Below, one piece after another: positions 13,096-29,213 of a stretch of DNA of 38,957 bases. Each line of letters opens with the position of its first letter. The first letter of the stretch is position 1. Location: contig CAYUPJ010000011.1 in the NCBI GenBank assembly GCA_964446635.1, forward strand, positions 1 to 38,957, given 5' to 3'. Origin of the DNA: an uncultured Anaerolineae bacterium. Lineage in GTDB: Bacteria > Chloroflexota > Anaerolineae > VGOG01. The position numbers and the translations under genes are program-made. A model generated the notes under the pieces. That model was given only the letters and a program-made list of their open reading frames with translations, did no database searches and was not told the origin of the DNA.

Positions 13096-13148
13096 CCGAG
13101 TCTCCTCTGGTTCTCAGATCTACGGCTGATTATAACACAACCTTCCAA

Positions 13149-13910
13149 TTAGGTCAAAAGCTGCCACAGCCGCCCCAGGCGCACGTACATCACAAAAGTG
13201 TAGTAGGCCATCAGGAGACTTAAGAGCAGCCCATGGAAGCCGTCCTTGTAGCCCTTTAGGGAGACGTAGCGCCGCCGGAACTCCCTGAGGGGCTGCAAGA
13301 TGAAGCTGTGGAGCCTGGGGCGGACACCCTGATCGAAGAGGATCTTGGCTTCGTAGTCCGTGTAGCGATTCTGCCTTTCGATGAATTGAGCCAGGGTGTT
13401 GTAGTTGTAGTGGATCAGGGGATTCTCTAAGTATCCATCCTCGCCATCCAGAATGACGATCTCGTGAACCTCTCGCTTTGGGTCGTAGCGGGCCTTGCCA
13501 TGCCGCAGTAGGCGCAGTTGATAATCGGGATACCAGCCGGCGTGGCGGATCACTCGGCCGAAGATGTAATTGTGGCGGGGAACCCACCAGCCCGCGCGCA
13601 ATTCATCCTGGATGGCGCGGCGCACCTCGACCGCCAGCTCCGGCGTGGCGCGCTCGTCGGCGTCAACGAAGAAGACCCAGTCGCTATCCACAGCATCCAG
13701 GGCAGCGTTGCGCTGCTGGGCGAAGCTCTGGAACCGGTGCTGGAAAATCGTCGCCCCTGCCTCTCGTACAATCTCCGCCGTTCGATCCTGGCTGAAGGAA
13801 TCGAACACCACGACCTCGTCGGCCCATGGCACACTGGCGAGGCAGTCGGCGATATTCTTCTCCTCGTTGTTGGTGAGGATGATGGCGGTTAGCTTCGGCT
13901 TTTTCTTCAT
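13149..13910 (-). CDS. family 2 glycosyltransferase
   Basis: KLTAIILTNNEEKNIADCLASVPWADEVVVFDSFSQDRT...FFVDADE gives a GT2 DxD-type fold signature. ATG at 13910 overlaps the upstream GT2 stop (ATGA). The 358-aa track start is a Gly/Ala-rich extension and is rejected. Confidence 0.75.
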   Translation of the reverse strand: MKKKPKLTAIILTNNEEKNIADCLASVPWADEVVVFDSFSQDRTAEIVREAGATIFQHRFQSFAQQRNAALDAVDSDWVFFVDADERATPELAVEVRRAIQDELRAGWWVPRHNYIFGRVIRHAGWYPDYQLRLLRHGKARYDPKREVHEIVILDGEDGYLENPLIHYNYNTLAQFIERQNRYTDYEAKILFDQGVRPRLHSFILQPLREFRRRYVSLKGYKDGFHGLLLSLLMAYYTFVMYVRLGRLWQLLT

Positions 13911-14887
13911 TTGGCCTGTGACATCTCCGCGACCATCCGATAGGCCCTCAGACAGCTCTCCAGATCCGCTTGGCTGATCTCGCCTCGCTTGGTTGCCGCC
14001 AGCGCTCGACGTTTCTCCGCTCGCAGCCCCAGCCGCACCATGCGGCGCACGGCCCACTGGTAGAAACGGCCATAGTGCTTCTCGAAGAGCAGATAACGGC
14101 TCCTCCATAGGGCCACAAACATCTCGCCCCGCACCTGCCTGGTGCTCTTGGCCTCGTGGTGCACCACCTCGGCCCTGGGCACGCAGTAGACATCCCAGCC
14201 CGCTTTCCTCATCCTCATGCACCAATCAATCTCCTCGCAATAGATGAAGAACCGCTCGTCCAGCAGGCCCACCTCTTGGATAGCCTCCCCTCGCGCCATC
14301 AGGGCCGCGCCCAAAGGATGGTCAATGGGGAAAGGCTCTCCCCCTTCGTAGAGCCGGCGGGGATAGCGACCGTTGAGGCGTGAGTTCAGCAGGCGATATT
14401 GGAGGGGGAAAAAGTCGAAGAAGGCCTGGGCCAGAGTTGGGAAAGCAAAGGCCGAGTGCTGCAGTTGGCCATCGGGGTAGAGGAGCTTGGCGCCAGCCAC
14501 GCCGGCGTGGGGATTCTCGTCCAGGAAACCCACCATCGTGGTCAGGGCATCACCCAACACCTCCGTGTCGGGGTTCAGCAGAAGAACGTAGCGGGGCAGT
14601 TCGTGGGACTCAGCCGAGGCAAAGCCCCTCGCTCGTAGGGCCTGATTGTTGGCAGCCGCAAACCCGACGTTCGTCTCGTTGGCCATGAGCCTGGCCTGGG
14701 GGAAGCGCTCCCGCACCATCTCCGCGCTGCCGTCCGTCGAGGCATTATCCACCACCCAGACCCCGCCCCTCAGATTCGAGCCCTTCAGGTTTTCGTACAC
14801 TGAGGCTAGGCAAGCCTCCAACAACCCCCGCACGTTCCAACTAACGATCACAATGGCCAGGTCCAAATTCAACCCTACCTCCACCAA
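13907..14887 (-). CDS. family 2 glycosyltransferase
   Basis: LAIVIVSWNVRGLLEACLASVYE...VWVVDNASTDGS gives a GT2 signature. TTG start at 14887. Translationally coupled to the downstream GT2. Confidence 0.7.
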   Translation of the reverse strand: MVEVGLNLDLAIVIVSWNVRGLLEACLASVYENLKGSNLRGGVWVVDNASTDGSAEMVRERFPQARLMANETNVGFAAANNQALRARGFASAESHELPRYVLLLNPDTEVLGDALTTMVGFLDENPHAGVAGAKLLYPDGQLQHSAFAFPTLAQAFFDFFPLQYRLLNSRLNGRYPRRLYEGGEPFPIDHPLGAALMARGEAIQEVGLLDERFFIYCEEIDWCMRMRKAGWDVYCVPRAEVVHHEAKSTRQVRGEMFVALWRSRYLLFEKHYGRFYQWAVRRMVRLGLRAEKRRALAATKRGEISQADLESCLRAYRMVAEMSQAK

Positions 14888-14977
14888 AGCGAGAAGCTCC
14901 GCTGATGTCCAGGCAAATTATACTCACGGCTGAGCAAAAGGCAAGCCCCTGTCACCTCGACAGGGGCTTCATGTATC

Positions 14978-16270
14978 TTACTTGCTGGTGTCTCCCTTGT
15001 GGCGATCGCTTCCTTCGCTCTTGGGTGACACAGTGCCCTCCCTCTGAACGGTCTCAAGGAACATCCGCTCAAGTGACGGCGGGACCAGCCCAGCCTCACC
15101 GAGCTTCTCCAAATAGCGAAGCATGGCATAATCTGTTACGTCTGCCCCAGTCTGCGAGATGAATTCCTTGATCCGGTGGCTCTCAACTCTGGATCTTTGG
15201 TTTTCTAGTTCCTCCTCTTTTCTCGCCTTTTCGAAGGCCAGGGCTTGCTCCTCGATTTCCCGCGGCGCCTCGATTCCAACTTCCACCCGGTGAATTCTCA
15301 CCCCCCATGCGATCGCTGTAGCGCTCAAGGAGGTTTGCAGTTTAGCTTGTAGGAGTTGTGCATGAGTTTCTGGGCCTGCCTTTTTACGGGAACCCTTCTT
15401 GACGGGGGTGTAGATTTCGTCGAGGTAGCATGTGCATATCATATCGCGGAGTAGGGCAAGGGCAGCCCCAATGGTATATGCTTTCCAATCTGGCACAAGG
15501 TATACGGCATTGAACACTGCAGGTTCAGAAAACGGATACATGTTATCGCGTGTAGGCGGGCGGCTTCCAGGATCGATTTGGAAGAACACCTTGACATGAG
15601 TGTTCAGTGGAATTCCATCTCTAGTGGAAAAGGTCTGCGTTCTTTCCTCCACTTGCATGCGCAAATCAACGACTGCTCGTATCGTTTCGAAAGGCTTCTT
15701 TATCACAAAACCGGGCCCTGACACCTGGCTAGGGCATCCGAAGCGTTCAAAGACCACGGCATTTCCGTGATTGATAACCGTATAACCGACCGTTCTCGCT
15801 GGAGCGAACAAGCTCCTCGATTTTATGATTCTCACTTCGCCCCCGCTGACGAGCTCAAGAGGTCCTGCACGCTCAAGCAGCACTGACTCTATCAAGTAGA
15901 CAAAGGATTCCCACCGATCAACTCCTTGGAAAACAAAGATCATCTCAGAGCATAAGAGCAGTACAGATAAGACTACCGATAGCCAGGAAAGAAGCCCCAT
16001 CACGCCTCCCATGGCAAAGAAGACAATCTCTTCCACACTCATTCCGGGCGGGTTGGGTCCCCTAGCCCGGCCTGCCAAACCGCCAAGCACAAACGCAAGG
16101 ATAAAGGTAGCAAGAAGTATGACGCGTGCCAGACCTGACTCGCGAGCGAGGCGATAGGAGAGGATAGCAATGGCCACAATAACTGCTGCAACTGCAAATC
16201 CTGTGAGTCCAAACAGGAAGTAGGAGAGAATCAAAAGAACTGGGGCACTAAGTACAATCAGTTTTTTCAT
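14978..16270 (-). CDS. SPFH/band-7 (stomatin/flotillin-like) membrane protein with N-terminal TM helices and C-terminal coiled coil
   Basis: Multiple N-terminal hydrophobic helices. Central VINHGNAVVFERFG...GPGFVIKKPFETIRAVVDLRMQV is a typical SPFH core, followed by charged coiled-coil EEQALAFEKARKEEELENQRSRVE. GC is lower than in the flanks. Confidence 0.6.
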   Translation of the reverse strand: MKKLIVLSAPVLLILSYFLFGLTGFAVAAVIVAIAILSYRLARESGLARVILLATFILAFVLGGLAGRARGPNPPGMSVEEIVFFAMGGVMGLLSWLSVVLSVLLLCSEMIFVFQGVDRWESFVYLIESVLLERAGPLELVSGGEVRIIKSRSLFAPARTVGYTVINHGNAVVFERFGCPSQVSGPGFVIKKPFETIRAVVDLRMQVEERTQTFSTRDGIPLNTHVKVFFQIDPGSRPPTRDNMYPFSEPAVFNAVYLVPDWKAYTIGAALALLRDMICTCYLDEIYTPVKKGSRKKAGPETHAQLLQAKLQTSLSATAIAWGVRIHRVEVGIEAPREIEEQALAFEKARKEEELENQRSRVESHRIKEFISQTGADVTDYAMLRYLEKLGEAGLVPPSLERMFLETVQREGTVSPKSEGSDRHKGDTSK

Positions 16271-16632
16271 CGTTGACCTCCTGGACTAGCTCCCACCTGA
16301 CGAAGACATGGTGGTTTCGGAAGTGTAACAGGCTTTTCAGCCTCTGTTAGAGTTCCTTTCAGTATACCATAAAACCGTAAAAAACAGAAGTGACTCTTTG
16401 CTGGAGGTGTATTTCAGTTTTGTGTAACGTGTTTTGACAACTTCGCCCGAGCGTCTTCAGTGGCACCGAACAACGCGGATCGTGCATCGAAAGGGGTAGC
16501 CGAAGGCCAATTCATTACATAATCGCATCCTTCGATACGGTCTTGACCACATCCCGGCTTGCTCAGAGTACTCAACACCAATCTGACAGAAATCTGCTCC
16601 CAAAGTGAAATGCACCTTGCACTGGGTCTTAG

Positions 16633-16661
16633 TTGACAAAATCGCAAAATTATGATATACT
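16633..16661 (+). promoter_or_regulatory. sigma70-type promoter (TTGACA - 17 nt - TATACT) upstream of the HTH gene
   Basis: ttgaca at 16633-16638 and tatact at 16656-16661, in an AT-rich leader. Confidence 0.5.
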
Positions 16662-16709
16662 TTGTATGCTGAATATAGCTATCATGTTCTATACTCATAG
16701 GAGTAGATC

Positions 16710-17177
16710 GTGCAATATACTTCTGAGCAGACCTACACAACTGCTACTCTGTGCGAGATGTTCAATATCTCTAGGAGTACACTCTTTCGCTGGGAGCGAC
16801 AAGGTAAACTACCATCGGGTGATCCTTTTCCGCCAGTCAGCCGCGACGTGAATGGGCAACGGCAATACAGCTGGAAGCACCGGGCGGCTATCGCAAAATA
16901 TCAGCTTAAAAGACGGTTCGAGCAAATTGCTAGCGCAGAGGATCAGGCCTATGCAATAGATAACGTGGACATAGTATGGGAACAGCTCTCTCTGTACAAG
17001 TTCATAGAGCTGAGGGATAGCACCGGACTACGTGAGCTATCAGAACGTCCAACACTAGCGCCTGATATTATTCATCAACTGCTCCGAGAGGCAACGAAAT
17101 ATCATCCATCGGAAGAGATGTTCTGCCAGATAGTGAGTTTAGTATACAACAAAGCTTGTTCACATCAAACGGTCTAG
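16710..17177 (+). CDS. HTH DNA-binding protein (MerR/excisionase-like N-terminal helix-turn-helix)
   Basis: YTTATLCEMFNISRSTLFRWERQGKLP is a classic MerR/AlpA-type HTH. AT-rich gene. Confidence 0.55.
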   Translation: MQYTSEQTYTTATLCEMFNISRSTLFRWERQGKLPSGDPFPPVSRDVNGQRQYSWKHRAAIAKYQLKRRFEQIASAEDQAYAIDNVDIVWEQLSLYKFIELRDSTGLRELSERPTLAPDIIHQLLREATKYHPSEEMFCQIVSLVYNKACSHQTV

Positions 17178-17203
17178 CTGTCCACAATGCAAGGGATTTC
17201 GAA

Positions 17204-18523
17204 ATGTCGGAGATGCTAAGCGACCGCCGAGAAGCCCAAAAGGGTCTACTGGACGCCTTGACATCTGCAACAGGTTTGCCGACCGGGTTGTACGAGGAAC
17301 GAGATGGCCGAATGGCGACACTTTTCTCGGACCTATCCTTGGACAAGTTTGAGCCACACTGCAAATTCATTCAACAGTTCCCAAGAGGCAAGGAGGTCTG
17401 CGACGTCGACCAGTGCATCCGGGCCAAGAGGGTGGCCATAACCGGCACTGAGGACCAAACCTTGTGCTGGGCTGGTCTGTACAATCAGGCCATTCCGGTT
17501 ATTGTGGACGGGGTAGTGAAAGCCGTGTTGCTGTACGGCGAGATGCAGATCGAGGGAGAAGAATACCGCGAGAGTAGCCTACAAAGGCACGAGCAGGCGG
17601 TCTCCAGGCTGAAACTTAGTAGCGCTGAGGCAGCCGAGTTGCGCAAATTGCTGCTCCAAGCCAAGAAGTATACGCCCGAGGAACTTGATTTGGTAAAGGC
17701 TACATTCTCTAGAGTGTCTCGATTCTTTTACCGAATGTTTGAGGAGGAAGAGCGCTTCAGACAGGGTGTTGAACAGTTCAGGTCCAGCGTGGAGAAGATC
17801 ACACACGAGGTACAGACACGATTGCAGCCCGTACTGGCCAACGCTGAGAACCTGTTGACAGAGTTCCACACTTTAAGTGAGAAGGAGCGAGAGGCCGGAG
17901 TGAAAGAGGTGCTCAACAGCGCACTCGCGCTGGCGACTATGCTCAATAACTGGGGGCAGTTTCAGGAAGCGGACCACTTTGAGGAACAACCGCTTGAGAC
18001 ACTTCTGTATGAAGCCAAGCGGATCTACGCCGCTGAAGCACAGCGCCGGGGGATTAGCATTCGCATTGATCTTCGGCCCGTGGATGGGCGGCCAGTGGTC
18101 CTACCTATCTCCCGCCCTCACCTTCAACTCGCCCTGAACAACATTGTCCACAACGCTATTAAGTACTCCTTCCGCAGCGGGCCTGGCCGGACACGCCATA
18201 TCGAGATCACAGGTCGGCAGTTCGGTCGGTACTACGCTGTCAGTGTCCAGAACTATGGCGTGGGCATCCTGCCGGAGGAGATCGAGAGCCGAAGTATCTT
18301 CGAAGATGGCGTCCAGGGCAAATTGACACAGGGCGAGTACCGGACCGGATCTGGCAAGGGATTGTATTTTGCTGAACAGGTCATTCACCGTCACTATGGC
18401 AGGATCTCGGTCAGCAGCAAACAGATGAGCGACGAGGTGGAATCGGAGGGTGAGCCTCACTTGAACGAATTCACTGTGCTTCTTCCGCTTGAAAGGTCGA
18501 AGGAGGAACAGTCAGATGCCTAA
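17204..18523 (+). CDS. cytoplasmic sensor histidine kinase (N-terminal Cys-containing sensory domain, DHp H-box, HATPase_c)
   Basis: H-box ITHEVQTRLQPV. N-box LALNNIVHNAIKYS. G1 VQNYGVGI. G2 TGSGKGLYFAEQ. No TM helices. N-terminal region has conserved Cys residues (HCKF, CDVDQC, CWAGL). ATG 17204 follows AAGGGA; the track TTG is at 17156. Confidence 0.7.
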   Translation: MSEMLSDRREAQKGLLDALTSATGLPTGLYEERDGRMATLFSDLSLDKFEPHCKFIQQFPRGKEVCDVDQCIRAKRVAITGTEDQTLCWAGLYNQAIPVIVDGVVKAVLLYGEMQIEGEEYRESSLQRHEQAVSRLKLSSAEAAELRKLLLQAKKYTPEELDLVKATFSRVSRFFYRMFEEEERFRQGVEQFRSSVEKITHEVQTRLQPVLANAENLLTEFHTLSEKEREAGVKEVLNSALALATMLNNWGQFQEADHFEEQPLETLLYEAKRIYAAEAQRRGISIRIDLRPVDGRPVVLPISRPHLQLALNNIVHNAIKYSFRSGPGRTRHIEITGRQFGRYYAVSVQNYGVGILPEEIESRSIFEDGVQGKLTQGEYRTGSGKGLYFAEQVIHRHYGRISVSSKQMSDEVESEGEPHLNEFTVLLPLERSKEEQSDA

Positions 18524-18920
18524 GACTATTGTCTGGATCGAGGACGACACGGACATCATTGATCCGGTGGTACGGCCACTGGAGCGGGCTGGCTATCGCT
18601 TCGAACGGCTACGCACAGCTAAAGAGGCGCTAGACAGGTTGGACATCATCCGAGGCAGCGACTTGATTGTGCTCGATTTGATCCTGCCGCCGGGTGGAAT
18701 GGATCGCAAGTTTAGCTGTTATCCTGGTCTAGACTTGCTGCAGGAGCTACGGGAGCAACATGGCATCACCCAACCAGTAGTCGTCCTCAGTGTTGTGAGG
18801 AATGAAGAGACGTTCGAGAAACTACGTGCTTTGGGGGTGGCCGATGTGATCACCAAGGCAGTTCTGCCATCTGAATTGAAGGGAAGGGTGCAGAAGGTGT
18901 TGGAAGCCAACGAACAGTAG
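18516..18920 (+). CDS. single-domain response regulator (CheY-like receiver)
   Basis: IVWIEDDTDI...SDLIVLDLILP...VVVLSVV...TKAV carries the receiver acidic pocket, phospho-Asp, Ser and Lys signatures. GGAGGAA RBS. Overlaps the kinase stop. Confidence 0.75.
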   Translation: MPKTIVWIEDDTDIIDPVVRPLERAGYRFERLRTAKEALDRLDIIRGSDLIVLDLILPPGGMDRKFSCYPGLDLLQELREQHGITQPVVVLSVVRNEETFEKLRALGVADVITKAVLPSELKGRVQKVLEANEQ

Positions 18921-18964
18921 CTCTTACAGAATCTTCTTTAGCTTATTCACCGTGGGTCTTTGAA

Positions 18965-18996
18965 CCGCCAGTGTGGTTGCGCTGGCGGTTTTTTGG
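18965..18996 (+). terminator. rho-independent terminator after the response-regulator gene
   Basis: ccgccag tgtggttgcg ctggcgg tttttt. Confidence 0.75.
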
Positions 18997-19032
18997 TTTC
19001 ATCGCAAGAACCTTAAAATTTTGACTGATCTC

Positions 19033-19061
19033 TTGACAATATCTGAGGTATGTGGTATAAT
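19033..19061 (+). promoter_or_regulatory. perfect-consensus extended -10 sigma70 promoter (TTGACA - 17 nt - TGgTATAAT)
   Basis: ttgaca at 19033-19038 and tgg tataat at 19053-19061, about 115 nt upstream of the 19179 ATG. Confidence 0.65.
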
Positions 19062-19178
19062 GTATATAGTTACTATATGCACTATACTATAATCACTAAA
19101 TATCCCCATGCAAGGGTATTGATTCTGGCGGGGGTAGGCCATCCATAGTTTTATTTGTGATATGATGGGAGGAAGACT

Positions 19179-20420
19179 ATGTCTGCCTCGGCTAACGATG
19201 ATTATTCGCTGGTTAACGATAATCATTCGCCATCGCTCGTTTCCAAACCGCACTGGATCGCTTTCGTGAAATCGTTGTTCAGAGCGCTTCCTGTCGCGGT
19301 CGTCATTGCCGGTCTTTGCGCCCTTCTGGGAGGCGTTTATCACCTCAGCATGCTTGGGCTGTCGTCTTTGCCGCTTGCCCCTTTGCTGCGTGCTTTCTGG
19401 CTATGGCAAAACGATTATGCAGAATTTCGCAACGGGCGTATGTATCGCCGCAAGGATCCTTTTGGCTATCGCGTTGTAGCCAAAAACTATAGCTGGGTTG
19501 ATTGGCATTACAGGCAATCCTGGCTGGGACAATGTCTGGATTACGGTGACCTCGTGATAGGTTCAGGAGAGAATGCCGAGCGTATCCCGTGCCGTGGCCA
19601 TTTCAGCGAACTTCGCAACTTCTTAGAGAACGGAGGAACCTCTTCGCAGGCTCATACGCAAACGCAGGGTCAAAACGGCGGCTGTTTGACTTACTTGATT
19701 GTCCTAGTCCTGCTGATTGGAGTCCCTACACTTTACATTCTCAACAACCTACGCCGTCCCAGTCTCATACGGGGCACTACCCCAGGCATAGTACCTGCTT
19801 CACAAGTCTCGGACTTTCCCTTCAATAGGCAGCGTCCTCTCTACTCAGCCACCGAGTCTTCGAACTCTTCACCGGATCCCTCAATTCTCACATCGAATCC
19901 GGGCGCCGAACTACTTTCTCAATCTCTCACTGTGCCAGTGCTACATCCATGCTTCGAGTTGATGCAGGATAACTATAGCATCAATGGCCTGCTTGGTTGG
20001 GTGCCTGGGAAAACACCGCGTCCCGCTGTCTACCTTGGCAATGGGCACATGCTCCTGGGGATTTCTTCAGGTGCCGATGTCCGTAGCTATTCCTCGATGC
20101 GTCAGCATCTTACGATCCCAAACGACGCAAACCGGATTGTCCTGTCCTTCAAGTACTTTCCACACACTAACGACATTAACGGTGGCGACTGGTTCCAGGC
20201 CCTTATCCTGGATACCAACCTGAAGCCTTTGGTTGCAATTCTCAAATTCGCGTCGGATACTCGGGGGGCAAATGCGCAAGATTGGACATACATAAAAGAG
20301 TATGATGTGGCGGGCTTAGCTGAGCGCTCTGTATATGTCTATTTCAACGTAATCAACGACGGCGATGGTCTACCGAGTTATATGGACGTGAAAGACGTGT
20401 CTGTATCGGTCTGCCGGTGA
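19179..20420 (+). CDS. hypothetical membrane protein (two N-terminal TM helices, a further central TM, Ser/Pro-rich linker, C-terminal beta-rich domain)
   Basis: GGGAGGA RBS. TM segments ALPVAVVIAGLCALLGGVY and CLTYLIVLVLLIGVPTLYIL. No family recognised. Confidence 0.55.
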   Translation: MSASANDDYSLVNDNHSPSLVSKPHWIAFVKSLFRALPVAVVIAGLCALLGGVYHLSMLGLSSLPLAPLLRAFWLWQNDYAEFRNGRMYRRKDPFGYRVVAKNYSWVDWHYRQSWLGQCLDYGDLVIGSGENAERIPCRGHFSELRNFLENGGTSSQAHTQTQGQNGGCLTYLIVLVLLIGVPTLYILNNLRRPSLIRGTTPGIVPASQVSDFPFNRQRPLYSATESSNSSPDPSILTSNPGAELLSQSLTVPVLHPCFELMQDNYSINGLLGWVPGKTPRPAVYLGNGHMLLGISSGADVRSYSSMRQHLTIPNDANRIVLSFKYFPHTNDINGGDWFQALILDTNLKPLVAILKFASDTRGANAQDWTYIKEYDVAGLAERSVYVYFNVINDGDGLPSYMDVKDVSVSVCR

Positions 20421-20469
20421 ACTCGGACACAGTGCGCACCTAATCAACCGAAGATCACTCATAGCATAA

Positions 20470-20528
20470 AGGGCTGGGATTTGACTCCCAGCCCTCTGTT
20501 TTGCAAAGGAAAGCTTTTGTGATATAAT
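20470..20528 (+). promoter_or_regulatory. terminator hairpin (20470-20503) immediately followed by a TTGCAA - 16 nt - TGaTATAAT promoter (20501-20528)
   Basis: agggctggga tttgac tcccagccct ctgttttg, then ttgcaa...gtgatataat. Confidence 0.55.
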
Positions 20529-20561
20529 AAATGTAGATATCGGCATAAGAAGTCCGTTCTC

Positions 20562-21242
20562 ATGCCTCTTATAGAGGTAATATTCTCGCATTTTGGCCAG
20601 CGAAGAGGTGAGAGCGTGGTACATTCTGTCGTTTCTACCAGAGCGAGCAATGAGGGTCGCCGTGAGCGGATTCTGCAACTATACTATGACCGCTTGCGTG
20701 ACCTAACGAACTTCTTCTTCGCCGTCAACGCCCTGCTCATCGGGTTGGTAGTGCAATTCGCTCACGATGACCTCCAACAGTTGCTCCTGGCCGTTCTCGG
20801 CTATTCTGGTTCGGTAGCCACACCTTGCATCTATAAGGGTTTTCTCTCGTTGCGCTCGTACCGTGAGGACATGCGCCCGCTGGAGGAATCGCTGGACTAC
20901 GACATTTCTGGGAAGTATGAAAAGCGACTGAAGGGCACGCCGGTGGGGATTGTACGAGTAGCCCTTGTGCGGCTGTGCTTCAGTTTTTTGTTTGCGGGCT
21001 TCTATTTCGCTGCCATTATCTACTTTTTCTACAGGTTATCTGCACTGTATTGCCTCACTCCCCCGTGGTTTAATCTCCTCCTGGGTATTAATCATCTTCA
21101 TGCTAATCTGCTACGTTCCTTGGGTCATTTTTCAACGTCCCGGCAGGCCGGGAGTGATTTGGGCCGTGGTGCGAACGACATAGTGGAGGGAGGTGTAGTT
21201 CATCTTCTGATAAGGAGAAATCAACATGGCTCTATCCCATGA
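20562..21242 (+). CDS. hypothetical membrane protein (start uncertain; in-frame GTG alternative at 20615)
   Basis: Hydrophobic helices FFFAVNALLIGLVVQFA and LCFSFLFAGFYFAAIIYFFY. Overlaps the start of the SIR2 gene by 17 nt. Confidence 0.45.
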   Translation: MPLIEVIFSHFGQRRGESVVHSVVSTRASNEGRRERILQLYYDRLRDLTNFFFAVNALLIGLVVQFAHDDLQQLLLAVLGYSGSVATPCIYKGFLSLRSYREDMRPLEESLDYDISGKYEKRLKGTPVGIVRVALVRLCFSFLFAGFYFAAIIYFFYRLSALYCLTPPWFNLLLGINHLHANLLRSLGHFSTSRQAGSDLGRGANDIVEGGVVHLLIRRNQHGSIP

Positions 21243-23601
21243 AGAAATACGACGCCTCGCTTCCACATTGCGAAAGCAATCACCGGAAGACCGAGAGCTG
21301 TTTGTGAAAATTCTACGGACGGAGGATGTTCTTCCTGGACTCCGAGAGTTACCAGAGGAAGAGCTGAAGGAGTTTCTCGATCTATTGCCTGCCGCTCTAG
21401 CTGAGGAACTACGTAAGGCGCTGGCCGGAGTGGAGATACCGCCGGAACTGATAGACGAGATCCTGCGAGGAAACTGCGTCCTCTTCTTGGGGGCCGGTGT
21501 CTCCTTTGAGGCAGGAATGCCTTCTTCACAACAATTGGTCCGAGCTTTGGGGTACGATCCTAACAATGTGCCCCTAACAATAGCAGCGCAACAATTTGAG
21601 ACTAAACAGGGGCGGACAGAGCTTTGCACCATCATCAAGCGAGAATTCGAGATAGCTGACAAACGTAAGAAATCAGGAAGCTATCAATTCATCGCTAACA
21701 TACCCAAGTTGAACAGCCTAATCATCACTACTAACTACGATAGACTGCTGGAAGAGGCGCTCAAGCGAGAAAAGAAAACACCTTTGACAATCTGTAGGGA
21801 GGCTGAGTTGCCTTCGACGACCGGCCAACCCCATGTGATAGTCAAGCTTCACGGCGACATAGATCAATCCGAGACCGTAGTTATCACCCAAGGAGATTAC
21901 GCACGTTTAGCAGCAAGGCTGCGGGAGCCGGGCGGGTTCGGTGGCTTCCTGGCAACCATTCTTTCCACGCGGATAGTGATCTTCGTCGGGTTCAGCATGG
22001 CCGACGAGGACTTCCGCCTGATCCGCGATTTTATAACTACCCGGATGATTGACTTCGTCGGACGACGCACCCTCAAGCCCCCCTATGCCATCATGCCATG
22101 GGGGGAAGCAGAGGCCAAGGTGCTCGAAAGCCAATTGAACATCAAGGTCATTCGCGGCGAAGCAAAAGACTTCTTCGCCGCCATCTTTCGCCGCACCAGC
22201 GAATTCCTGAATCGGGAGGATGAATTGCGGGAGGTATGCGAGGTCCGAAAGGAACCATTCGTGGAGATTGTGGGTCCTGCTGGCTCCGGCAAGACGATGC
22301 TTTTGAGTGGCATAGAGACCTTCTATCGGATTCAGCGAGGCTTTAACCTGATAGTTTCCATCGCTTTGGAGGAAAAGGAAACCCCTCAAATGCTATCGCG
22401 GCGGCTGGCTGACCAATATAAATTGAGTTTAGATAAATTGGAGGATGACTTAAGAGGGACCTTAGTTCTTTTCACTTTCGACGGAACTGAAAGAGCCCCT
22501 GAGGCTGTACGTTGGCTGGAGCGGGAATTGCTGCCCAGATTAAGAAGAATATGGACCACGGATCTACACACCGACCTGGAGTTGGGCAGTGGGCGGGTGA
22601 TCTTCGCCGGCCGGCAGCATTTCCTTTGGCAATCCGTCACCCGGTTCCACCTCTATTCGCTGATCCTGACTCCTTTCCCGCACGGTGCCGTTGAAGATAT
22701 GGCCGGGAAGTATTACTTCCTCTTCAGGAGAGAAATGCCCTCAGCTCTAGAGAAGAAACGAATCGCCCAGGCTATTCTATCCCTCACCGGCACGGGACAC
22801 GCCGGGTTCATCAAAACCGTTCTGTACAAGATCACTGATGACAAGAAACTGCCAAAGGAGCAATATCCTTCGGCGGCCGATCTGGTCCGCTATATCGAAG
22901 AGCACACCGATGAGTTTCTCGAATGGAAACTGGTGCCTCAACTAAACAATGAGATTTTGAAAGGGGCAGAAGAACCTATCTTGCGGTCATTAGAGGATGT
23001 AATTTGTGTCTTCCGTCGTCTCAACAATTCGATTTTAACGAGTTTGCCCCAAAGAGGACTGGATCAATATGGTGTAGACGAGACCTGGTTCACCAAACCG
23101 GACGCGCTACTGAGAGCACTAGATAGTCTGCATATATTGAGCAAACCGGATGCCCGCAGCCCGATGTATCGGCTGGATCCGGTAGTGGGCTTTCTCCTCT
23201 CCGCGTGGCTCAGAAGAAAGAATTCAGGGGAGCTTTATCGCAAAGACCACGAGGTCGCGCTGGACATCTGCGACGAAGGAGTGCAACGCACTCCTAACCA
23301 TTTCCAGTTGGCCTATGCTCTAGAGGGGCTATATCACTTGCAGTGCCTGCGAGAAATCGGGGCCAGCCAGGTGGAACTGGCCGACAAAGCCAGACAATAC
23401 CTGGGTCAATTACGAGGAGCTGAGAATGGAAAGGCATTGGCCATGCAATGGAAAGATGTGGTCATGGAGGATCCCGATCTGAGGTGGAAAGTAGAAGAAG
23501 AAGCCAGAAGGCTCGACAGAACACCGGAGGAGAGGGAAGAGTGGTTGGCTAAGGTTTATGAAGCGCTAACCGCTGCCTTTGACAAGTATCTAGCCCCATG
23601 A
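21226..23601 (+). CDS. SIR2_2 (DHS-like NAD-binding) domain fused to a P-loop NTPase
   Basis: SIR2_2 motifs CVLFLGAGVS, LIITTNYDRLLEEAL, VKLHGDIDQ, IFVGFSMADEDF. Walker A is EIVGPAGSGKTMLL and the probable Walker B is LVLFTFDGTE. AAGGAG RBS. Confidence 0.75.
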   Translation: MALSHEEIRRLASTLRKQSPEDRELFVKILRTEDVLPGLRELPEEELKEFLDLLPAALAEELRKALAGVEIPPELIDEILRGNCVLFLGAGVSFEAGMPSSQQLVRALGYDPNNVPLTIAAQQFETKQGRTELCTIIKREFEIADKRKKSGSYQFIANIPKLNSLIITTNYDRLLEEALKREKKTPLTICREAELPSTTGQPHVIVKLHGDIDQSETVVITQGDYARLAARLREPGGFGGFLATILSTRIVIFVGFSMADEDFRLIRDFITTRMIDFVGRRTLKPPYAIMPWGEAEAKVLESQLNIKVIRGEAKDFFAAIFRRTSEFLNREDELREVCEVRKEPFVEIVGPAGSGKTMLLSGIETFYRIQRGFNLIVSIALEEKETPQMLSRRLADQYKLSLDKLEDDLRGTLVLFTFDGTERAPEAVRWLERELLPRLRRIWTTDLHTDLELGSGRVIFAGRQHFLWQSVTRFHLYSLILTPFPHGAVEDMAGKYYFLFRREMPSALEKKRIAQAILSLTGTGHAGFIKTVLYKITDDKKLPKEQYPSAADLVRYIEEHTDEFLEWKLVPQLNNEILKGAEEPILRSLEDVICVFRRLNNSILTSLPQRGLDQYGVDETWFTKPDALLRALDSLHILSKPDARSPMYRLDPVVGFLLSAWLRRKNSGELYRKDHEVALDICDEGVQRTPNHFQLAYALEGLYHLQCLREIGASQVELADKARQYLGQLRGAENGKALAMQWKDVVMEDPDLRWKVEEEARRLDRTPEEREEWLAKVYEALTAAFDKYLAP

Positions 23602-23628
23602 GCTGTTTTGCCGTTTTAGGAGGATAAC

Positions 23629-26600
23629 ATGGCTATAGAGAATCTAGTTACGCGAAGACTTCACTGGCTAATTGGTCGCCAGAAAGAGAAAGAGGGTATT
23701 GCCCGTGCCATTAAGGGCCAAGGGCCACCAATCCTCTTCCTGGAGGGCATCGCCGGCATTGGAAAAACGGTTCTCCTGGAAGAAGCCAGTCGTATAGCCC
23801 AAGAGTATGGAGCCCTCTGCCCGCCCATCATAGACTTCTACGATACCGATATGCACGCCCACCGGTCTCTGGAGGCGGCCATTGCCCTAAGCCTGGATCC
23901 AAAAAAGAAGGCTTTCCAAGACTATTGGACCCGGCGAGAACAGATGGAACGTACTATGCTGCCGGAACGCAAGACCCAGAAGGAGCAGGAGAAGGAACTC
24001 TGGGGGCTCTTCGTGAAGGGATACACCAACGTGGCAGAGAACCAACGGGTGATGCTGCGTTTCGATACGGCCGAGCGCCTGGAGTACGAACGGGATTCCC
24101 AAGAAGTCTTGACGGATTGCGAGGTCTCGCCTCAGGATGCCCCCAGTTGGGAATGGCTCCTAGAGCGCATCGGCGATCTAGAGAACACAACCTCCCTCAT
24201 TGCCAGCCGTCCCACAGATCTCCTGAAGCAGAGACTCCTTATAACACATGAGGGGCGTGTTCTTACCCTTGAGGTGAAAGGGTTCACTATAGAGGAGACG
24301 GAGGCCTATTTCCGGGCTACCGATTTCGGCAAACAAGTAGCCGATGAGTCCCCAGAGATGGTGAGCAAGGTCCACCTGCTCACCGATGGACGGCCTATCC
24401 TGATCGCCCTGGCCCTGGACTGGCTGCAACGGGGGATGTGGGAACGGCACATCTACCCGGTCAGCCTGGAAGAATTGAGAACTTTGAAGGAGCAGGCTCA
24501 GGAAGAGGAAAAATCCAACCGAAGAGGTGAGGCCTGGTGGAGATGGGACGAGATCAAGCATAGTTTTGAAATCGCTCTGGTGCAGCAGATCCGCAACCTG
24601 AACCACACAGGTCTGGATGTGGCGGTGAAATATACTGCTCTAGCCCGCAGGGGATGCAATGCCGAGCTTCTCTCTCGCCTAATATGGATTTCTCTGGAAG
24701 AGGTAAAGGGATTGGTAAAGCAGCTCCTGACCCTTTCCTTCGTCAGACCGTCACGTGGTCCCCGTAATCTTTTCTTTTTACACGATGAAATGTATGATCT
24801 GGTGGAAAAATATATCTGGCTGGTGGACTGGCCCGATTGCAGTGAGCAGGCCCGGTTAGACAGAGTCATCATAGAGTGGTATACAGAACAAATAGAGGAA
24901 CTCAAGAAGCGTATCAAAACCTCTCGGGACTGGCGGGAACGGGCCGCCTTACGTAGTCAGCAACAACTTCTGACGGCCGAGCGTTTGTACTACCAGCATG
25001 ATGAGGACCCACGGCTCGGCTATCGTGAATACAGCCACTTAGACGAGGAGGCCGTTGGCTCCCGTGAAAACGAATGGGACGTTATGTTGCGAAACGAGGC
25101 TCTGTGGTTCACATCTCACCGGGCTTGGCGGCAGGGGAAATCGATAAGCGTAGTTGGGGGAGAATATCCCCTTCGTGATCCTGCGTGGGTGAGAAATGGT
25201 AAAGTAGAGCGCAGCCCTGCAGTGGATCACGATTGTCGGCGTCGCTGGGTTAACCGCTACATCGCTCGAAATGAGATGGAGAAAGCAGCCCGTGTTGCTG
25301 AGAATCTTCTCAAGAAGGAACCTCGTGAGGGGGAACCCGAATTATACCGAGGTGGTGTACTAATCGCCCTGGCTACGGCCCAGGCGTACATGGGCGGCGA
25401 ATTCTTGGAGCCAGCTCTTCGGAACTTCCAAGAGGGCATTCAACGCTTGGAGAGCGCTCCAGAGGAACACAAGGAACCATGGCTGTATCCCTACCTCTTG
25501 GCCACAGCATACCTCTATCAAGGCTTGGCCCTGCGTAACTCCCTTCGCCTCGGTGAAGCAGTCCGGTCTTATAGTCAGGCCATGCTCCATTATCGGAGCA
25601 TCGGCTACCAAGCCGGCTTGGCTGAGGCGATGAACAACCTGGCCTACATCTACGCCCGCCAGGGACGGCTGGATCAGGCCCTAGCTTCTTGTGAAGAGGC
25701 CCTGCGCATTCGGCAGGAATTGGGTGACGAATATAATGTTGCCCTTAGTCTCAACACCAAAGGGATCGTCTACGAACGGATGGACCGGCCCCTCACGGCT
25801 ATCCACAATAGCGAGCAGGCCTTGGCCCTTTTCAAGGAGATCAACAACGAACGGGGCATCATCCTGGCCGAGATCAACCTGGGACGCTCCTATCGCCGTA
25901 AAGCTCGTAGTCCTGAATGGGGTCAGAAAAACGAAGACTTTGAGGTAGGAAGAGGACACCTGGAAGACGCCATCTACCGGCAGGAGCAAATGGGGGCCAG
26001 CGCCGAGATGTTCTATCGGATCGAGGCCCACAATGAGCTGGGCTGCCTCTATCGGGATTGGGCGGCGACGTTGGTTGACAAGGGTATCAGAGACAGCAGC
26101 AAATTGCTAGAACACCTGGGAGAAGCCGAAAGCCATCTGAATAGAGCCATCGGTCTGGCCACCCAAGAGGGGCAGATACTAACGCGCCATGCAGTGCAAT
26201 ATGCCGACTCTCTGGAGGACTTGGCCCGCGTATACTACTGGCGTGGGAAGTTGGGATTCTCTGTAGGTTCCTGGGCTAAGCAACGTGGCTTTGACAGGCC
26301 TCTGCAGGCGATGAAGAGCCTTCTCGATGAGGCAAAGAGATTGATAGAGGAACGCCTGAAAGAGTGGGAAGAGCTGCGTCTCATCGTGGGCAAAACCCAT
26401 CACCAGTATGCCCGGCTGGCAAGAGAGGAAGCAGAGGAGGAGTCAAAGAGAGACAAACTCGATTACGTTGCTAAGCACTACGCTTGGGCAGCGGCTCTCT
26501 TGGAGAGTTATTCTTTCGATGCGCCTGAATTGCGCAAGACAGTGGCCGATGCCTGTGAGTGGCTGTGTACGCTTCAGCCTCAGGAAGCGAAAGAGCGGGT

Positions 26601-26733
26601 TGAGCAAATGCATTCTACCCTGAAGGCCGACGGGCAAAAGAGCGAGAGATTGAAGGACTGGGTCAACAGTGTTGTTTATCCTCGCCTCGGTGTAGGCTGG
26701 CCTGAGGAAGGGCCGGAGGTGGCCCATGGGTGA
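23629..26733 (+). CDS. STAND-type P-loop NTPase with C-terminal TPR repeat array
   Basis: Walker A is FLEGIAGIGKTVLLEEA and Walker B is VMLRFDTAERL. The C-terminal half has about 8 TPR-like repeats (AYLYQGLALRN..., AEAMNNLAYIYARQGRLDQALASCEEAL, ALSLNTKGIVYER...). GGAGG RBS. Confidence 0.75.
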   Translation: MAIENLVTRRLHWLIGRQKEKEGIARAIKGQGPPILFLEGIAGIGKTVLLEEASRIAQEYGALCPPIIDFYDTDMHAHRSLEAAIALSLDPKKKAFQDYWTRREQMERTMLPERKTQKEQEKELWGLFVKGYTNVAENQRVMLRFDTAERLEYERDSQEVLTDCEVSPQDAPSWEWLLERIGDLENTTSLIASRPTDLLKQRLLITHEGRVLTLEVKGFTIEETEAYFRATDFGKQVADESPEMVSKVHLLTDGRPILIALALDWLQRGMWERHIYPVSLEELRTLKEQAQEEEKSNRRGEAWWRWDEIKHSFEIALVQQIRNLNHTGLDVAVKYTALARRGCNAELLSRLIWISLEEVKGLVKQLLTLSFVRPSRGPRNLFFLHDEMYDLVEKYIWLVDWPDCSEQARLDRVIIEWYTEQIEELKKRIKTSRDWRERAALRSQQQLLTAERLYYQHDEDPRLGYREYSHLDEEAVGSRENEWDVMLRNEALWFTSHRAWRQGKSISVVGGEYPLRDPAWVRNGKVERSPAVDHDCRRRWVNRYIARNEMEKAARVAENLLKKEPREGEPELYRGGVLIALATAQAYMGGEFLEPALRNFQEGIQRLESAPEEHKEPWLYPYLLATAYLYQGLALRNSLRLGEAVRSYSQAMLHYRSIGYQAGLAEAMNNLAYIYARQGRLDQALASCEEALRIRQELGDEYNVALSLNTKGIVYERMDRPLTAIHNSEQALALFKEINNERGIILAEINLGRSYRRKARSPEWGQKNEDFEVGRGHLEDAIYRQEQMGASAEMFYRIEAHNELGCLYRDWAATLVDKGIRDSSKLLEHLGEAESHLNRAIGLATQEGQILTRHAVQYADSLEDLARVYYWRGKLGFSVGSWAKQRGFDRPLQAMKSLLDEAKRLIEERLKEWEELRLIVGKTHHQYARLAREEAEEESKRDKLDYVAKHYAWAAALLESYSFDAPELRKTVADACEWLCTLQPQEAKERVEQMHSTLKADGQKSERLKDWVNSVVYPRLGVGWPEEGPEVAHG

Positions 26734-27733
26734 TTGCGCCTGCGATGTAAGAGCAGACCAGCTCGATCCTTATGCGCCGCTGTCCCATTTCTTTCTGGAA
26801 CTTACCACCGAGTGTAACAACGCCTGTCCCGGTTGTGGCAGCATCTATGCCCATCAGAAGAACGCGCATCCACTGCCCGCAGCCGATTGGCGCACTGTGA
26901 TCGACCGGCTACTGCCCATGACCCCTTGCCTGCGGCTCACGGGTGGGGAGCCTACGCTACACCCTGAGTTTGAGGAGATTGTCGCATACGTCAATGCCCA
27001 AGGCATTCCATTTACCGTCTTTACCAATGCCCGGTGGGAGGACCCGGATGCCGTGATCCGCATTATGGCGGATAAACAACATCTAGAGGGTATCTTGGTG
27101 TCCATTCACGGGGCACGGGCTTCCTCTCACGAAGCATTCACTGCGGCTCCTGATTCTTTTGACGAAGCGGTGGATAATACTCGCCGAGCGTCCGAGGCAG
27201 GGGTACGGGTTGTGACCAGCACTGTCATCACCCACCAGAACTATCACGAAATAGAAGAGATTGTGGCACTAACCCAAGCCATTGGGGTGGATCGAGCGAC
27301 GTTTAGCCGTTTCATTGGACCGCCTTTGCCCGAGATCGAGACAAGCGAAGGTGAGCTCGAAGTGGCTGTGCAGGCTATCGAGCTATTAATAGATAATGGA
27401 CACTATCCCGAAGGTGGCGGAGAGGCGATTCGCTACGGGGCGCCCATTCCCCGTTGTTTTACTGACAATCGTTCCAACGGGTGTATGGCGGGGTTCGTCC
27501 ATGCAACCATTGATCCGTGGGGGAACTTGCGACCATGCCCTCACGTGCCAATAATCGCGGGTAACGTGTTGGAACAAGACTTTGATACAATCTGGTATTC
27601 TCTGACTATGGAAACTTGGCGGAAGGGACTGCTGGCTCAGTGTGATGGTTGCCCCATCGCGGGTGAATGTCGCAGCGGATGTCAGGCACAGGCCATGTGG
27701 AGAAAGACATTGCGGGATCCACTTATTCAGTGA
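26726..27733 (+). CDS. radical SAM enzyme with C-terminal SPASM/twitch Cys-rich domain
   Basis: CNNACPGC is the CxxxCxxC radical-SAM cluster motif and GGEP is the SAM-binding motif. The C-terminal cysteines CFTD...CMAG...CPH...CDGCPIAGECRSGC fit a SPASM-like auxiliary-cluster domain. The start overlaps the upstream stop (ATGGGTGA). Confidence 0.85.
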   Translation: MGDCACDVRADQLDPYAPLSHFFLELTTECNNACPGCGSIYAHQKNAHPLPAADWRTVIDRLLPMTPCLRLTGGEPTLHPEFEEIVAYVNAQGIPFTVFTNARWEDPDAVIRIMADKQHLEGILVSIHGARASSHEAFTAAPDSFDEAVDNTRRASEAGVRVVTSTVITHQNYHEIEEIVALTQAIGVDRATFSRFIGPPLPEIETSEGELEVAVQAIELLIDNGHYPEGGGEAIRYGAPIPRCFTDNRSNGCMAGFVHATIDPWGNLRPCPHVPIIAGNVLEQDFDTIWYSLTMETWRKGLLAQCDGCPIAGECRSGCQAQAMWRKTLRDPLIQ

Positions 27734-27754
27734 TTCCTGTGGTTGAATGCTCGC

Positions 27755-27790
27755 AGCCCGCTGCTAAACCCAGCAGCGGGCTGTTTTGTT
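27755..27790 (+). terminator. rho-independent terminator after the radical SAM gene
   Basis: agcccgctgct aaaccc agcagcgggct gttttgttg. Confidence 0.75.
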
Positions 27791-27973
27791 GTACAATCAT
27801 CGCCAGGTTGATTGCATCTTCCAGACCCGATCTCGAATCGATCAAGGGGCACAGAAAAGGGGCTATCCTAAACCCAAGACAGCCCCATGCTCTTGAATCA
27901 ACGCTTGCTAATCTGGTCTTTCCTCCCTACACCACCTTCTCCCTCACCTTGGCGCTGGCGTAGTCCAGAGCGG

Positions 27974-29190: not shown

Positions 29191-29213
29191 CTCCCTGGTA
29201 TTGGGATTGAACT

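Follow-up and report, generated by a model that had tools for sequence, protein, structure and literature searches.

What did an uncultured Anaerolineae bacterium gain, if anything, when a stretch of lower GC content came to interrupt two of its conserved genes? The window analyzed here is an entire NCBI metagenome contig of 38,957 bp (CAYUPJ010000011.1), in which an initial annotation had set apart positions 14978-27790 as a horizontally acquired accessory block. Our analysis points to an acquired island lodged at a variable site between LarC, which encodes a nickel insertion protein, and a gene for a family 2 glycosyltransferase (GT2). Its cargo includes an operon resembling the NLR (nucleotide-binding proteins with leucine-rich repeats) and antiviral STAND (Avs; STAND, signal transduction ATPases with numerous domains) type, with genes for a SIR2-STAND protein, a NACHT protein with tetratricopeptide repeats (TPR), and a radical S-adenosylmethionine (rSAM) enzyme. 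We give this reading a probability of about 0.7. The island as such is ordinary and of a known kind. The cargo, more than the island, merits follow-up: judged from sequence, it would be a multi-component form of STAND/SIR2 immunity that is rare, conserved, and, as far as we can tell, not yet described.

A Variable Site between LarC and a Glycosyltransferase Gene

The block and its borders comprise the following features.

14864..27990, no strand: inserted accessory block of 13,127 bp, from the LarC 3' end to codon 7 of GT2b
13907..14887, minus strand: GT2b, GT2 glycosyltransferase, conserved left flank (Pfam Glycos_transf_2)
27974..29266, minus strand: LarC, nickel insertion protein, conserved right flank (Pfam Ni_insertion, 6.9e-139)
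14917..14944, minus strand: promoter-like site TTGCCT-16-TATAAT, now 5' of GT2b
27857..27990, minus strand: older scar common to the window and relative L005, with the truncated 3' end of a small open reading frame (ORF; ...LDYASAKVREKVV and stop) and a hairpin at 27886-27859

For comparison we used three metagenome-assembled genomes of Anaerolineae, found through a LarC scan of genome contigs and compared by blastn and tblastn, in which LarC is 92% (L005), 91% (L006), and 85% (L007) identical to that of the window. In L006 and L007 the LarC stop overlaps the GT2b start and the entire block is absent. The LarC-overlapping gene of these two genomes is 61-65% identical to GT2b of the window, and the order LarE-LarB-LarC-GT2b-GT2a-HNH is kept around the empty site (L007). 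Homology to the empty sites stops at about 27991 on the LarC side (a 22-nt alignment, reached by 4 of 2,000 shuffles) and begins again at about 14863 on the GT2 side (0 of 2,000 shuffles). Only 3 nt of the empty sites are unaccounted for at the window junctions, and the breakpoints are thereby placed within a few bases. The initial annotation was right that a block exists here, while its actual extent, 14864-27990, is larger than proposed.

The additional sequence is made up of the exchanged 5' end of GT2b, the new promoter-like site, and the 130-bp scar at LarC. Both neighboring genes had one end exchanged in the insertion. LarC takes its last 5 codons from the scar, whose small ORF is truncated in the window, and GT2b has ~6 island-derived codons at its start, together with its upstream signals, a GGAGG Shine-Dalgarno sequence being present. 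GT2b now sits behind the terminator of an island gene encoding an SPFH protein (14969-14943) and the overlapping promoter-like TTGCCT-16-TATAAT (14944-14917). The translational coupling of GT2b to LarC, as found in L006 and L007, would thus have been lost through the insertion, and the new site may act as its promoter.

The closest relative, L005, holds a different cargo at the same place. After LarC (7297-15538) it has genes for S1-REC-GAF-HK, REC-GAFx7-HK, REC, and REC-TIR proteins (Pfam domains; HK, histidine kinase), the last matching the PADLOC defense candidate PDC-S35 at 5e-71 with a TIR domain of the CAP12/Pycsar type. This cargo has the look of a two-component-controlled TIR effector and recalls Detocs-like designs. 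Only ~130 bp beside LarC are common to L005 and the window (L005 6965-7091 versus window 27986-27857; blastn, 76% identity). Because its closest relative carries other cargo with just this scar in common, the LarC/GT2 junction is a variable hotspot, empty in L006 and L007, occupied by the SIR2-STAND module in the window and by kinases and REC-TIR in L005. The shared scar further indicates that the site was already occupied in the common ancestor of the window and L005, the cargo having been exchanged since. The proposal of horizontal acquisition is therefore strongly supported, by the empty sites with kept flank synteny and by the alternative cargo; the block itself has no conserved synteny among these relatives. 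We found no description in the literature of a hotspot of this sort in this uncultured Anaerolineae lineage.

The join at the block borders is not chimeric, because an independently assembled Logan contig (L001, run ERR4334733) is 100% identical to window positions 14511-28099 and covers both junctions; a second one (L002, ERR4334734) crosses the right junction. Logan contigs of the same samples end near the block borders, at 14511 and at 28082-28099. Such ends, a few hundred bases beyond either border, could reflect coexisting strain variants at the locus.

Composition and Mode of Arrival

The segment 14978-27790 has a GC content of 52.4%, compared with 58.7% for the rest of the window (58.0% to its left, 59.5% to its right), and 1-kb windows range from 0.48 to 0.56 in the block and from 0.53 to 0.69 in the flanks. 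The lowest-GC position for a segment of the block's size begins at 15101. At third codon positions (GC3) the nine island genes average 0.573 +/- 0.049 and the 22 flank genes 0.702 +/- 0.053 (Mann-Whitney p=6.8e-5), and none of 2,000 permutations of gene labels reached the island-flank distance in synonymous codon usage. The drop in GC expected from inspection by eye is therefore real, but at ~6 points it amounts to about half of the 10-15 points estimated; GC, GC3, and codon usage all deviate, whereas tetranucleotide composition does not discriminate.

As the initial annotation had stated, no integrase, tRNA, or direct repeat marks the boundaries. None of the nine island proteins has an integrase or recombinase domain in Pfam, NCBIfam, or PADLOC, and the ORF at 16414-16740 is without a family match. 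No tRNA is present anywhere in the window and no Rfam family in the block, and a repeat search found no repeat family at the block borders. The sole candidate for an attachment site, a flanking direct repeat or target-site duplication suggested by an apparent copy of the GT2b Shine-Dalgarno/start segment at each junction, was rejected as not above chance, its score being reached by 328 of 2,000 and 309 of 5,000 shuffles.

The most economical mechanism would be that cargo is gained and swapped by homologous recombination in the conserved flanks, with no need for a self-encoded integrase. Like defense islands and hotspots between core genes, the block has conserved flanks (LarC, GT2), variable defense-type cargo, low GC, and its own promoters and terminators. 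It differs from them in having no integrase, tRNA, transposase, or attachment repeats, and in that the insertion falls inside an overlapping gene pair, so that expression of the downstream GT2 gene would be rewired. The block also differs from classical integrative islands and prophage-like elements, showing neither the integrase nor the tRNA or transfer-messenger RNA target nor the attachment or target-site repeats of these elements. With breakpoints at base-pair level, empty sites, and an alternative cargo, the locus is a clean island case, and it implies that uncultured Anaerolineae have defense hotspots which exchange cargo without integrases.

A SIR2-STAND, NACHT-TPR, and Radical SAM Operon

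The rightmost transcription unit of the island (20500-27784, ~7.3 kb) runs from a promoter through four genes to a terminator.

20500..20528, plus strand: promoter TTTGCA-17/TTGCAA-16-TGaTATAAT of the four-gene STAND operon
20562..21242, plus strand: 8xMP-like membrane protein, first operon gene (Pfam 8xMP, sub-threshold at 21.5 bits, cut-off 30)
21226..23601, plus strand: SIR2-STAND, 791 aa, with an N-terminal SIR2 domain of the NAD+-hydrolyzing (NADase) type, a NOD (nucleotide-binding oligomerization domain) with Walker A/B, and a helical C-terminal region (Pfam SIR2_2, 3.9e-26)
23629..26733, plus strand: NACHT-TPR STAND protein, 1034 aa, conserved core partner (Pfam TPR_12, 2.8e-23; NACHT sub-threshold at 24.2 bits, cut-off 26.7)
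26726..27733, plus strand: rSAM/SPASM enzyme, 335 aa (Pfam Radical_SAM 1.5e-18, SPASM 4.8e-8), overlapping the NACHT-TPR stop by 8 nt
27753..27784, plus strand: intrinsic terminator of the STAND operon, 13-bp stem with 9 GC pairs

The first protein has transmembrane segments and is 43-58% identical to 8xMP proteins preceding the same operon in four other loci (L085, L175, L178, L179); no description of the 8xMP family was found in the literature. In the SIR2-STAND family alignment (A1) the motifs GAGVS, TTNYD (Asn170), and KLHGD (His209) and the Walker A sequence GPAGSGKT are invariant. Sequence matches in the PDB are to the NADases ThsA, KomC, and DSR2. The AlphaFold2 model (mean predicted local distance difference test, pLDDT, 82.9) has EfAvs5 (9jap_A, E 1.6e-13) as its best Foldseek match in the PDB, followed by DSR2 and ThsA. 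Residues ~560-791 are helical and belong to no recognised repeat family.

The NOD of NACHT-TPR is homologous to that of SIR2-STAND (hhalign 92.8%), and its AlphaFold2 model (pLDDT 86.6) is closest in Foldseek to an archaeal STAND-TPR protein (6mfv_A, E 2e-14), then to Apaf-1 and to the peptide-binding TPR proteins LGN and Rap. In the rSAM alignment (A2) the CX3CX2C motif (C30, C34, C37) and the SPASM cysteines C244, C253, C271, C306, C309, C315, and C319 are invariant. No NCBIfam equivalog cut-off is reached by this enzyme, the best match, AhbD, scoring 95.5 bits where 500 are required, and with all scores below cut-off it is not a member of the AhbD, MftC, PqqE, Scm, GeoRSP, Hxs, or sactipeptide systems.

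Recurrence and Distribution of the Module

Is this combination of genes peculiar to the window? Context look-ups of SIR2-STAND and rSAM homologs, with blastp on the fetched loci, show that the module recurs in ~10 other loci, mostly of Chloroflexota, with the same gene order in L085/86, L087, the P0008 contig, L088-91, L175/176, L177, L178, L179, and L180-182. In the cable bacterium Electrothrix (L183/184) only the version with TPR, ATPase, and rSAM is found. The rSAM gene comes last in every locus and overlaps the TPR gene. The initial annotation had listed the gene content correctly, but as a list only, and did not recognize that a recurrent multi-gene module lies within it.

Identity to the window proteins ranges over 45-85% for rSAM, 31-77% for NACHT-TPR, and 27-68% for SIR2-STAND. 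In L175 and L177 NACHT-TPR is 60-63% and rSAM 72-75% identical, yet SIR2-STAND only 27-28%. Since the first two stay close in these loci while the third diverges, NACHT-TPR and rSAM form the conserved core, with the effector-bearing SIR2-STAND either swapped or fast-evolving. The pair of rSAM and STAND-TPR persists down to 45% identity, into Electrothrix. Fusions and extra effectors also occur: a PNP_UDP_1 domain on the SIR2-STAND homolog P0006, a calcineurin-like metallophosphoesterase on the NACHT-TPR homolog P0330, and an additional stand-alone SIR2 in L180. PNP_UDP_1 is the nucleosidase fold used by ATP nucleosidases of the Detocs/Cap17 type.

Across 11 independent loci, the neighbors within 10 kb include Band_7/SPFH proteins in 7, 8xMP in 6, REC, kinase, or TCAD9 proteins in 5, and Peptidase_S24 in 3; Pfam scans of the unknown neighbor genes in the related loci gave nothing informative. 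The module has a lower GC than its flanks in all eight other loci measured, and its contexts are unrelated, for example beside lysine-biosynthesis genes in L180 and beside an integrase fragment in L087.

The module is also rare. Searched exhaustively with HMMER, 1.84 billion cluster representatives (50%-identity clusters) yielded 34 SIR2-STAND clusters at E<=1e-30; NACHT-TPR has ~50 full-length relatives, and the rSAM clade ~400 members. Metagenome and viral scans with the SIR2-STAND alignment, in which the back-translated patterns fell in the SIR2 motifs, gave only generic SIR2-domain relatives and no new module loci. Likewise, scanning viral sequences with the rSAM alignment and searching collections of phages and plasmids by tblastn gave only distant generic rSAM or TPR matches, and the module was not seen in known plasmid, phage, or viral-contig collections.

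Two peculiarities of individual loci deserve mention. L177 (JBHLMJ010000023.1) is labelled Promethearchaeota, and its module (rSAM 75%, NACHT-TPR 60%) lies beside Band_7 and GAF-kinase/REC-GerE genes typical of Chloroflexota; the contig is either mis-binned or the product of a cross-domain transfer. In L178 and L179 (ENA ERZ250394xx contigs) SIR2-STAND is found in 2 ORF pieces and NACHT-TPR in up to 5, which reflects either pseudogenization or indel errors of long-read assembly.

Comparison with Known Systems and a Proposed Mechanism

No named system or model combining SIR2-STAND, NACHT-TPR, and rSAM/SPASM was found in PADLOC, NCBIfam, or the literature, the coverage of the last being incomplete. 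One of the closest known systems is Avs5, an antiviral STAND encoded by one gene, which turns on its NADase by forming filaments once a phage protein is sensed (PMC11897194; 10.1101/2025.07.08.663546). The window protein resembles EfAvs5 (PDB 9jap) in length (791 versus 833 aa), in its N-terminal SIR2_2 domain, where the catalytic Asn and His are present, in its NOD, which contains Walker A/B, and in having a helical C-terminus. In contrast to the one-gene Avs5, however, it is always followed by a paralogous STAND-TPR and an rSAM/SPASM enzyme and usually preceded by 8xMP, and at 12% identity and a template-modelling (TM) score of 0.25 it falls outside the family's sequence models. The SIR2 domain is homologous to those of Thoeris ThsA (PADLOC, 1.3e-26), DSR1/DSR2, and Kongming KomC, and its chemistry, NAD+ hydrolysis, is probably the same as in these defense NADases. 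Only the SIR2 part aligns with Thoeris (residues 75-266), the window protein having no SLOG domain and the island no ThsB/TIR gene, and the NCBIfam scores for Dsr1 (41.7 bits) and Dsr2 (27.1 bits) compare with cut-offs of 1400; the protein thus belongs to neither Thoeris nor DSR. The activation module, by contrast with ThsA, DSR, and KomC, is a NOD ATPase.

Radical SAM chemistry has been linked to immunity elsewhere. In the conflict systems of multicellular bacteria, FxSxx-COOH peptide processing by an rSAM-SPASM enzyme is genetically linked to AP-ATPase-TPR and TIR proteins, its predicted role being to modify a peptide that acts as signal or toxin (Kaur et al. 2020, eLife, PMC7159879). The common logic is the genetic linkage of an rSAM-SPASM enzyme with a STAND-TPR ATPase and with an effector that targets NAD. 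Unlike that system, the window contains no precursor, zincin peptidase, or vWA-MoxR partners, and no peptidase or precursor is found in the related loci; the effector is a SIR2 domain on a second STAND, and the host lineage is Chloroflexota, not Actinobacteria. HXS is a validated defense system with an rSAM-matured effector (PMC13128918); HXS and Ophion were considered as matches to the module and set aside as different rSAM defense systems. An architectural parallel, and one of architecture only, may be drawn with the paired NLRs of plants and animals (sensor/helper; NAIP-NLRC4), which likewise have two adjacent paralogous NODs, one in a large repeat sensor without effector and the other with an effector and a short C-terminal region; the rSAM enzyme has no counterpart there.

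In this context, we put forward that the operon probably encodes an NLR/Avs-type abortive-infection system. The NACHT-TPR arm would sense a protein or peptide ligand, either invader-derived or modified by the rSAM enzyme, and NTP-dependent oligomerization would then recruit the paralogous NOD of the Avs5-like SIR2-STAND. Clustering of SIR2 domains would turn on NAD+ hydrolysis, as in Avs5, ThsA, and DSR2, and the infected cell would be stopped. The rSAM/SPASM enzyme would most likely modify one of the system's proteins or peptides covalently, while SPFH and 8xMP would anchor it to the membrane. SPASM enzymes typically cross-link or oxidize peptide residues. Speculative candidates for the substrate are the C-terminal GVGWP tail of NACHT-TPR (moderately conserved in the A3 consensus), the 8xMP protein, and a peptide ligand bound by the TPR region.

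A bolder and tentative proposal, which we hold to be somewhat improbable, is that the operon and SPFH together represent an undescribed class of bacterial NLR, mainly of filamentous Chloroflexota, in which a STAND sensor/helper pair, with NACHT-TPR as the sensor and SIR2-STAND as the executor of NAD+ depletion, needs a dedicated rSAM/SPASM modification. If true, this would be the first radical SAM chemistry within NLR-type activation and the first paired NLR in bacteria. Should the operon be an immune system at all, it would widen the Avs/NLR repertoire to multi-component, enzyme-assisted designs, and its ~7.3 kb, with native promoter and terminator, would be suited to testing the role of radical SAM chemistry in STAND signaling.

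Other Genes and Regulatory Signals of the Block

To the left of the STAND operon lie five further genes and their signals.

14943..14969, minus strand: hairpin terminator after the SPFH gene, 12-bp stem
14978..16270, minus strand: SPFH/Band_7 membrane protein, 430 aa, ~3-4 N-terminal transmembrane segments (Pfam Band_7 6.6e-10; hydropathy)
16633..16661, plus strand: sigma70-type promoter TTGACA-17-(TG)ATATACT (11/12), 5' of the MerR, kinase, and receiver operon
16710..17177, plus strand: MerR-type helix-turn-helix (HTH) protein, 155 aa (Pfam MerR 30.4 bits, cut-off 28.2)
17156..18523, plus strand: cytoplasmic sensor histidine kinase with PocR domain (Pfam PocR 5e-11, HATPase_c 1e-12)
18489..18920, plus strand: stand-alone receiver, REC (Pfam Response_reg 7.6e-12)
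18962..18991, plus strand: intrinsic terminator, 13-bp stem and T run
19033..19061, plus strand: extended -10 promoter TTGACA-17-TGgTATAAT (12/12)
19179..20420, plus strand: membrane protein, 413 aa, 2 transmembrane segments, no family match
20470..20495, plus strand: intrinsic terminator, hairpin and T run

Pfam agrees with the gene content read initially from the sequence (SPFH, MerR-like protein, Cys-containing cytoplasmic kinase, receiver, two membrane proteins, and the SIR2/STAND/rSAM operon). The MerR-type protein also has weak HTH_17/excisionase and PADLOC mad1 matches. The kinase ORF begins at 17156, with a gene call from 17204 in L001; the protein has 4 Cys and no transmembrane segment, and its H-box, ITHEVQTRL, was read in the sequence, there being no HisKA match in Pfam. 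With this H-box, and with HATPase_c and Response_reg above the Pfam cut-offs, the pair qualifies as a two-component system. The SPFH protein is only distantly related to the Band_7 proteins near other module loci (24-33% over the SPFH domain). The link of the accessory genes to the operon is a recurring theme rather than orthology, and control of the STAND operon by MerR, PocR kinase, and receiver is possible, though unsupported by orthology.

The island is organized as four separate, well-punctuated transcription units: SPFH; MerR-HTH, PocR kinase, and receiver; the 413-aa membrane protein; and the STAND operon of 8xMP-like, SIR2-STAND, NACHT-TPR, and rSAM/SPASM genes. The promoters and terminators named by the initial annotation are present at, or within a few bases of, the positions it gave. 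Its suggestion of a regulatory grammar proper to the island is not supported, because an equal promoter and terminator serve conserved flank genes. Four sites in the window fit the extended -10 pattern TTGACA-N14-TGnTATAAT with no more than 2 mismatches, where chance would give 0.04. The island holds three of these promoters, all of them located in AT-rich intergenic sequence with a gene downstream in the right orientation; the remaining one (13157-13129, 11/12 plus TG) belongs to the HNH gene, a gene conserved in L007, and a clean flank terminator (12546-12573) follows the gene for a low-molecular-weight phosphatase. That three of the four strong promoters fall within a third of the window does not amount to significant enrichment (binomial p ~0.11). 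Promoter-like and terminator-like counts in the island (11 versus 8.6 +/- 2.9 and 15 versus 11.2 +/- 3.6 in shuffled sequence) lie within about one standard deviation. The signals of the island are ordinary sigma70 promoters and intrinsic terminators, also used by the host.

Alternative Explanations

The block might be ancestral and have been deleted independently in L006 and L007, its low GC being due to the kind of genes it contains (membrane and signaling genes, with long intergenic regions). Such a history would agree with the lack of integrase, tRNA, and repeats, with a tetranucleotide signature that is not clearly foreign, and with the kinase and receiver genes, whose GC3 (0.62-0.65) sits at the low end of host values. 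Nevertheless, two deletions would then have had to recreate the same precise overlap of LarC stop and GT2 start, with only 3 nt differing from the two window junctions; the island's GC3, a measure that depends little on the type of protein, is lower by 13 points; and L005 has other cargo at the site, the module being found elsewhere in unrelated contexts, once by an integrase fragment (L087). We consider an ancestral block very unlikely. That the island is an artefact of assembly or binning, a chimeric join of DNA from two organisms, is hardly credible: the window is indeed a whole metagenome-derived contig and Logan contigs tend to end near the island borders, but L001 is identical across both junctions, L002 crosses the right one, the scar beside LarC is also present in L005, and both flanks are syntenic with the relatives.

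As to function, the rSAM/SPASM, TPR, and ATPase genes could instead form a cofactor-maturation cluster, or one akin to those for ribosomally synthesized and post-translationally modified peptides, under STAND/TPR regulators (AfsR/SARP, HaaT-type), with SIR2 as a regulatory deacylase. A full SPASM domain is typical of peptide maturases; in NCBIfam the enzyme comes nearest, below threshold, to AhbD, mycofactocin, PqqE, ScmF, and sactipeptide maturases, with SkfB, PqqE, and BlsE as matches in the PDB; and the TPR region weakly matches HaaT and AfsR, its fold resembling the peptide-binding Rap and LGN. This alternative appears quite unlikely to us all the same, as the module has no conserved precursor peptide, protease, or exporter, SIR2 falls in the SIR2_2/ThsA/DSR/Avs5 NADase branch with invariant catalytic N and H, and both ATPases are NOD-type STANDs without DNA-binding domains. 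Moreover, the effector partner is swapped or fused to other effectors, and the module is patchy, of low GC, and at a hotspot whose other cargo is a TIR defense candidate. In another scenario the whole island would be one signaling-plus-effector system, in which PocR kinase, receiver, and MerR control the SIR2-STAND operon in a Detocs-like manner and the L005 cargo is the same design with another NADase. Two-component or REC-TCAD9 genes do stand beside the module in 5 of 11 loci, and with kinases and REC-TIR in L005 both cargos of the site pair phosphorelay parts with an NAD-cleaving domain. However, Chloroflexota are rich in such genes, so that adjacency may be due to chance; the MerR, kinase, and receiver of the window have no homologs beside the module elsewhere and make up a transcription unit apart from the operon, bounded by a promoter and a terminator of their own. 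Although a kinase and a stand-alone receiver are present in the window, it has, unlike L005 with its REC-TIR fusion, no fusion of REC to an effector, so the defining architecture of Detocs is missing, and the PADLOC matches are generic. We regard this scenario as rather unlikely.

Several points weigh against the preferred reading, an island acquired at the hotspot and carrying an NLR/Avs-type operon. No mobility gene or repeat was found that accounts for the arrival of the block, and we infer, rather than prove, the direction of the event (gain here as opposed to loss in the relatives); the relatives belong to other species, their LarC being 85-92% identical, and the L005 contig stops before the left end of its cargo is reached. 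Correlations of tetranucleotide z-scores between island and flanks (0.59 and 0.46, compared with 0.65 between the flanks) give no clear separation at this sequence length. Because this signature does not clearly part island from host, the block may have been donated by a related lineage of Chloroflexota or may be old. Immune function is a prediction from sequence and structural models. The Foldseek match to EfAvs5 is at a TM score of 0.25 and 12% identity, and SIR2-STAND gives only domain-level PADLOC matches (ThsA, LmuA, Dsr, SIR2), no Avs model in PADLOC or NCBIfam being matched. In blastp on the fetched loci, the MerR, kinase, receiver, and 413-aa genes have no homologs at other module loci. 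Across the loci, no conserved precursor peptide or small ORF lies near the module; a 66-aa ORF in L177, examined as a candidate precursor, proved to be a fragment of the NACHT gene.

Other Features of the Flanks

The left flank contains a complete type III-I CRISPR-Cas effector set (3978-10168, minus strand), with host-like GC3 and no CRISPR array in the window.

3978-4991, minus strand: Cas6i (320 bits)
4960-5844, minus strand: Cas10i (479 bits)
5828-9058, minus strand: Cas7-11i gRAMP (NCBIfam NF049957, 1908 bits, full length 1-1076/1076)
9113-10168, minus strand: RtcA, RNA 3'-phosphate cyclase, directly upstream of Cas7-11i

In the right flank, a gene for a four-helix-bundle '23S rRNA IVP' protein (29244-29711) lies between LarB and LarC in the window only, LarB adjoining LarC in L005, L006, and L007. 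It is flanked by heptamer arrays that are mutual reverse complements, TGTTGCG x4.4 (29213-29243) and CACGCAA x7.7 (29729-29782), and the segment 29180-29845 is a further small insertion, its repeat arrays being inverted. Further tandem arrays of 7-8 nt are present at 2261-2288, 10287-10338, 31356-31429, 33019-33083, and 34552-34674 (e.g., TTCGCCCA x9 and ACCAATCT x9). These short arrays lie in flank intergenic regions or at gene ends, none being in the island, and may reflect a host-specific repeat habit. Finally, an ORF at 37821-38258 (plus strand) has a weak, sub-threshold match to the TumE toxin (Pfam 19.7 bits, cut-off 23.4) and is overlapped by an upstream ORF (37555-37887), with which it may form a toxin-antitoxin pair at the end of the window.

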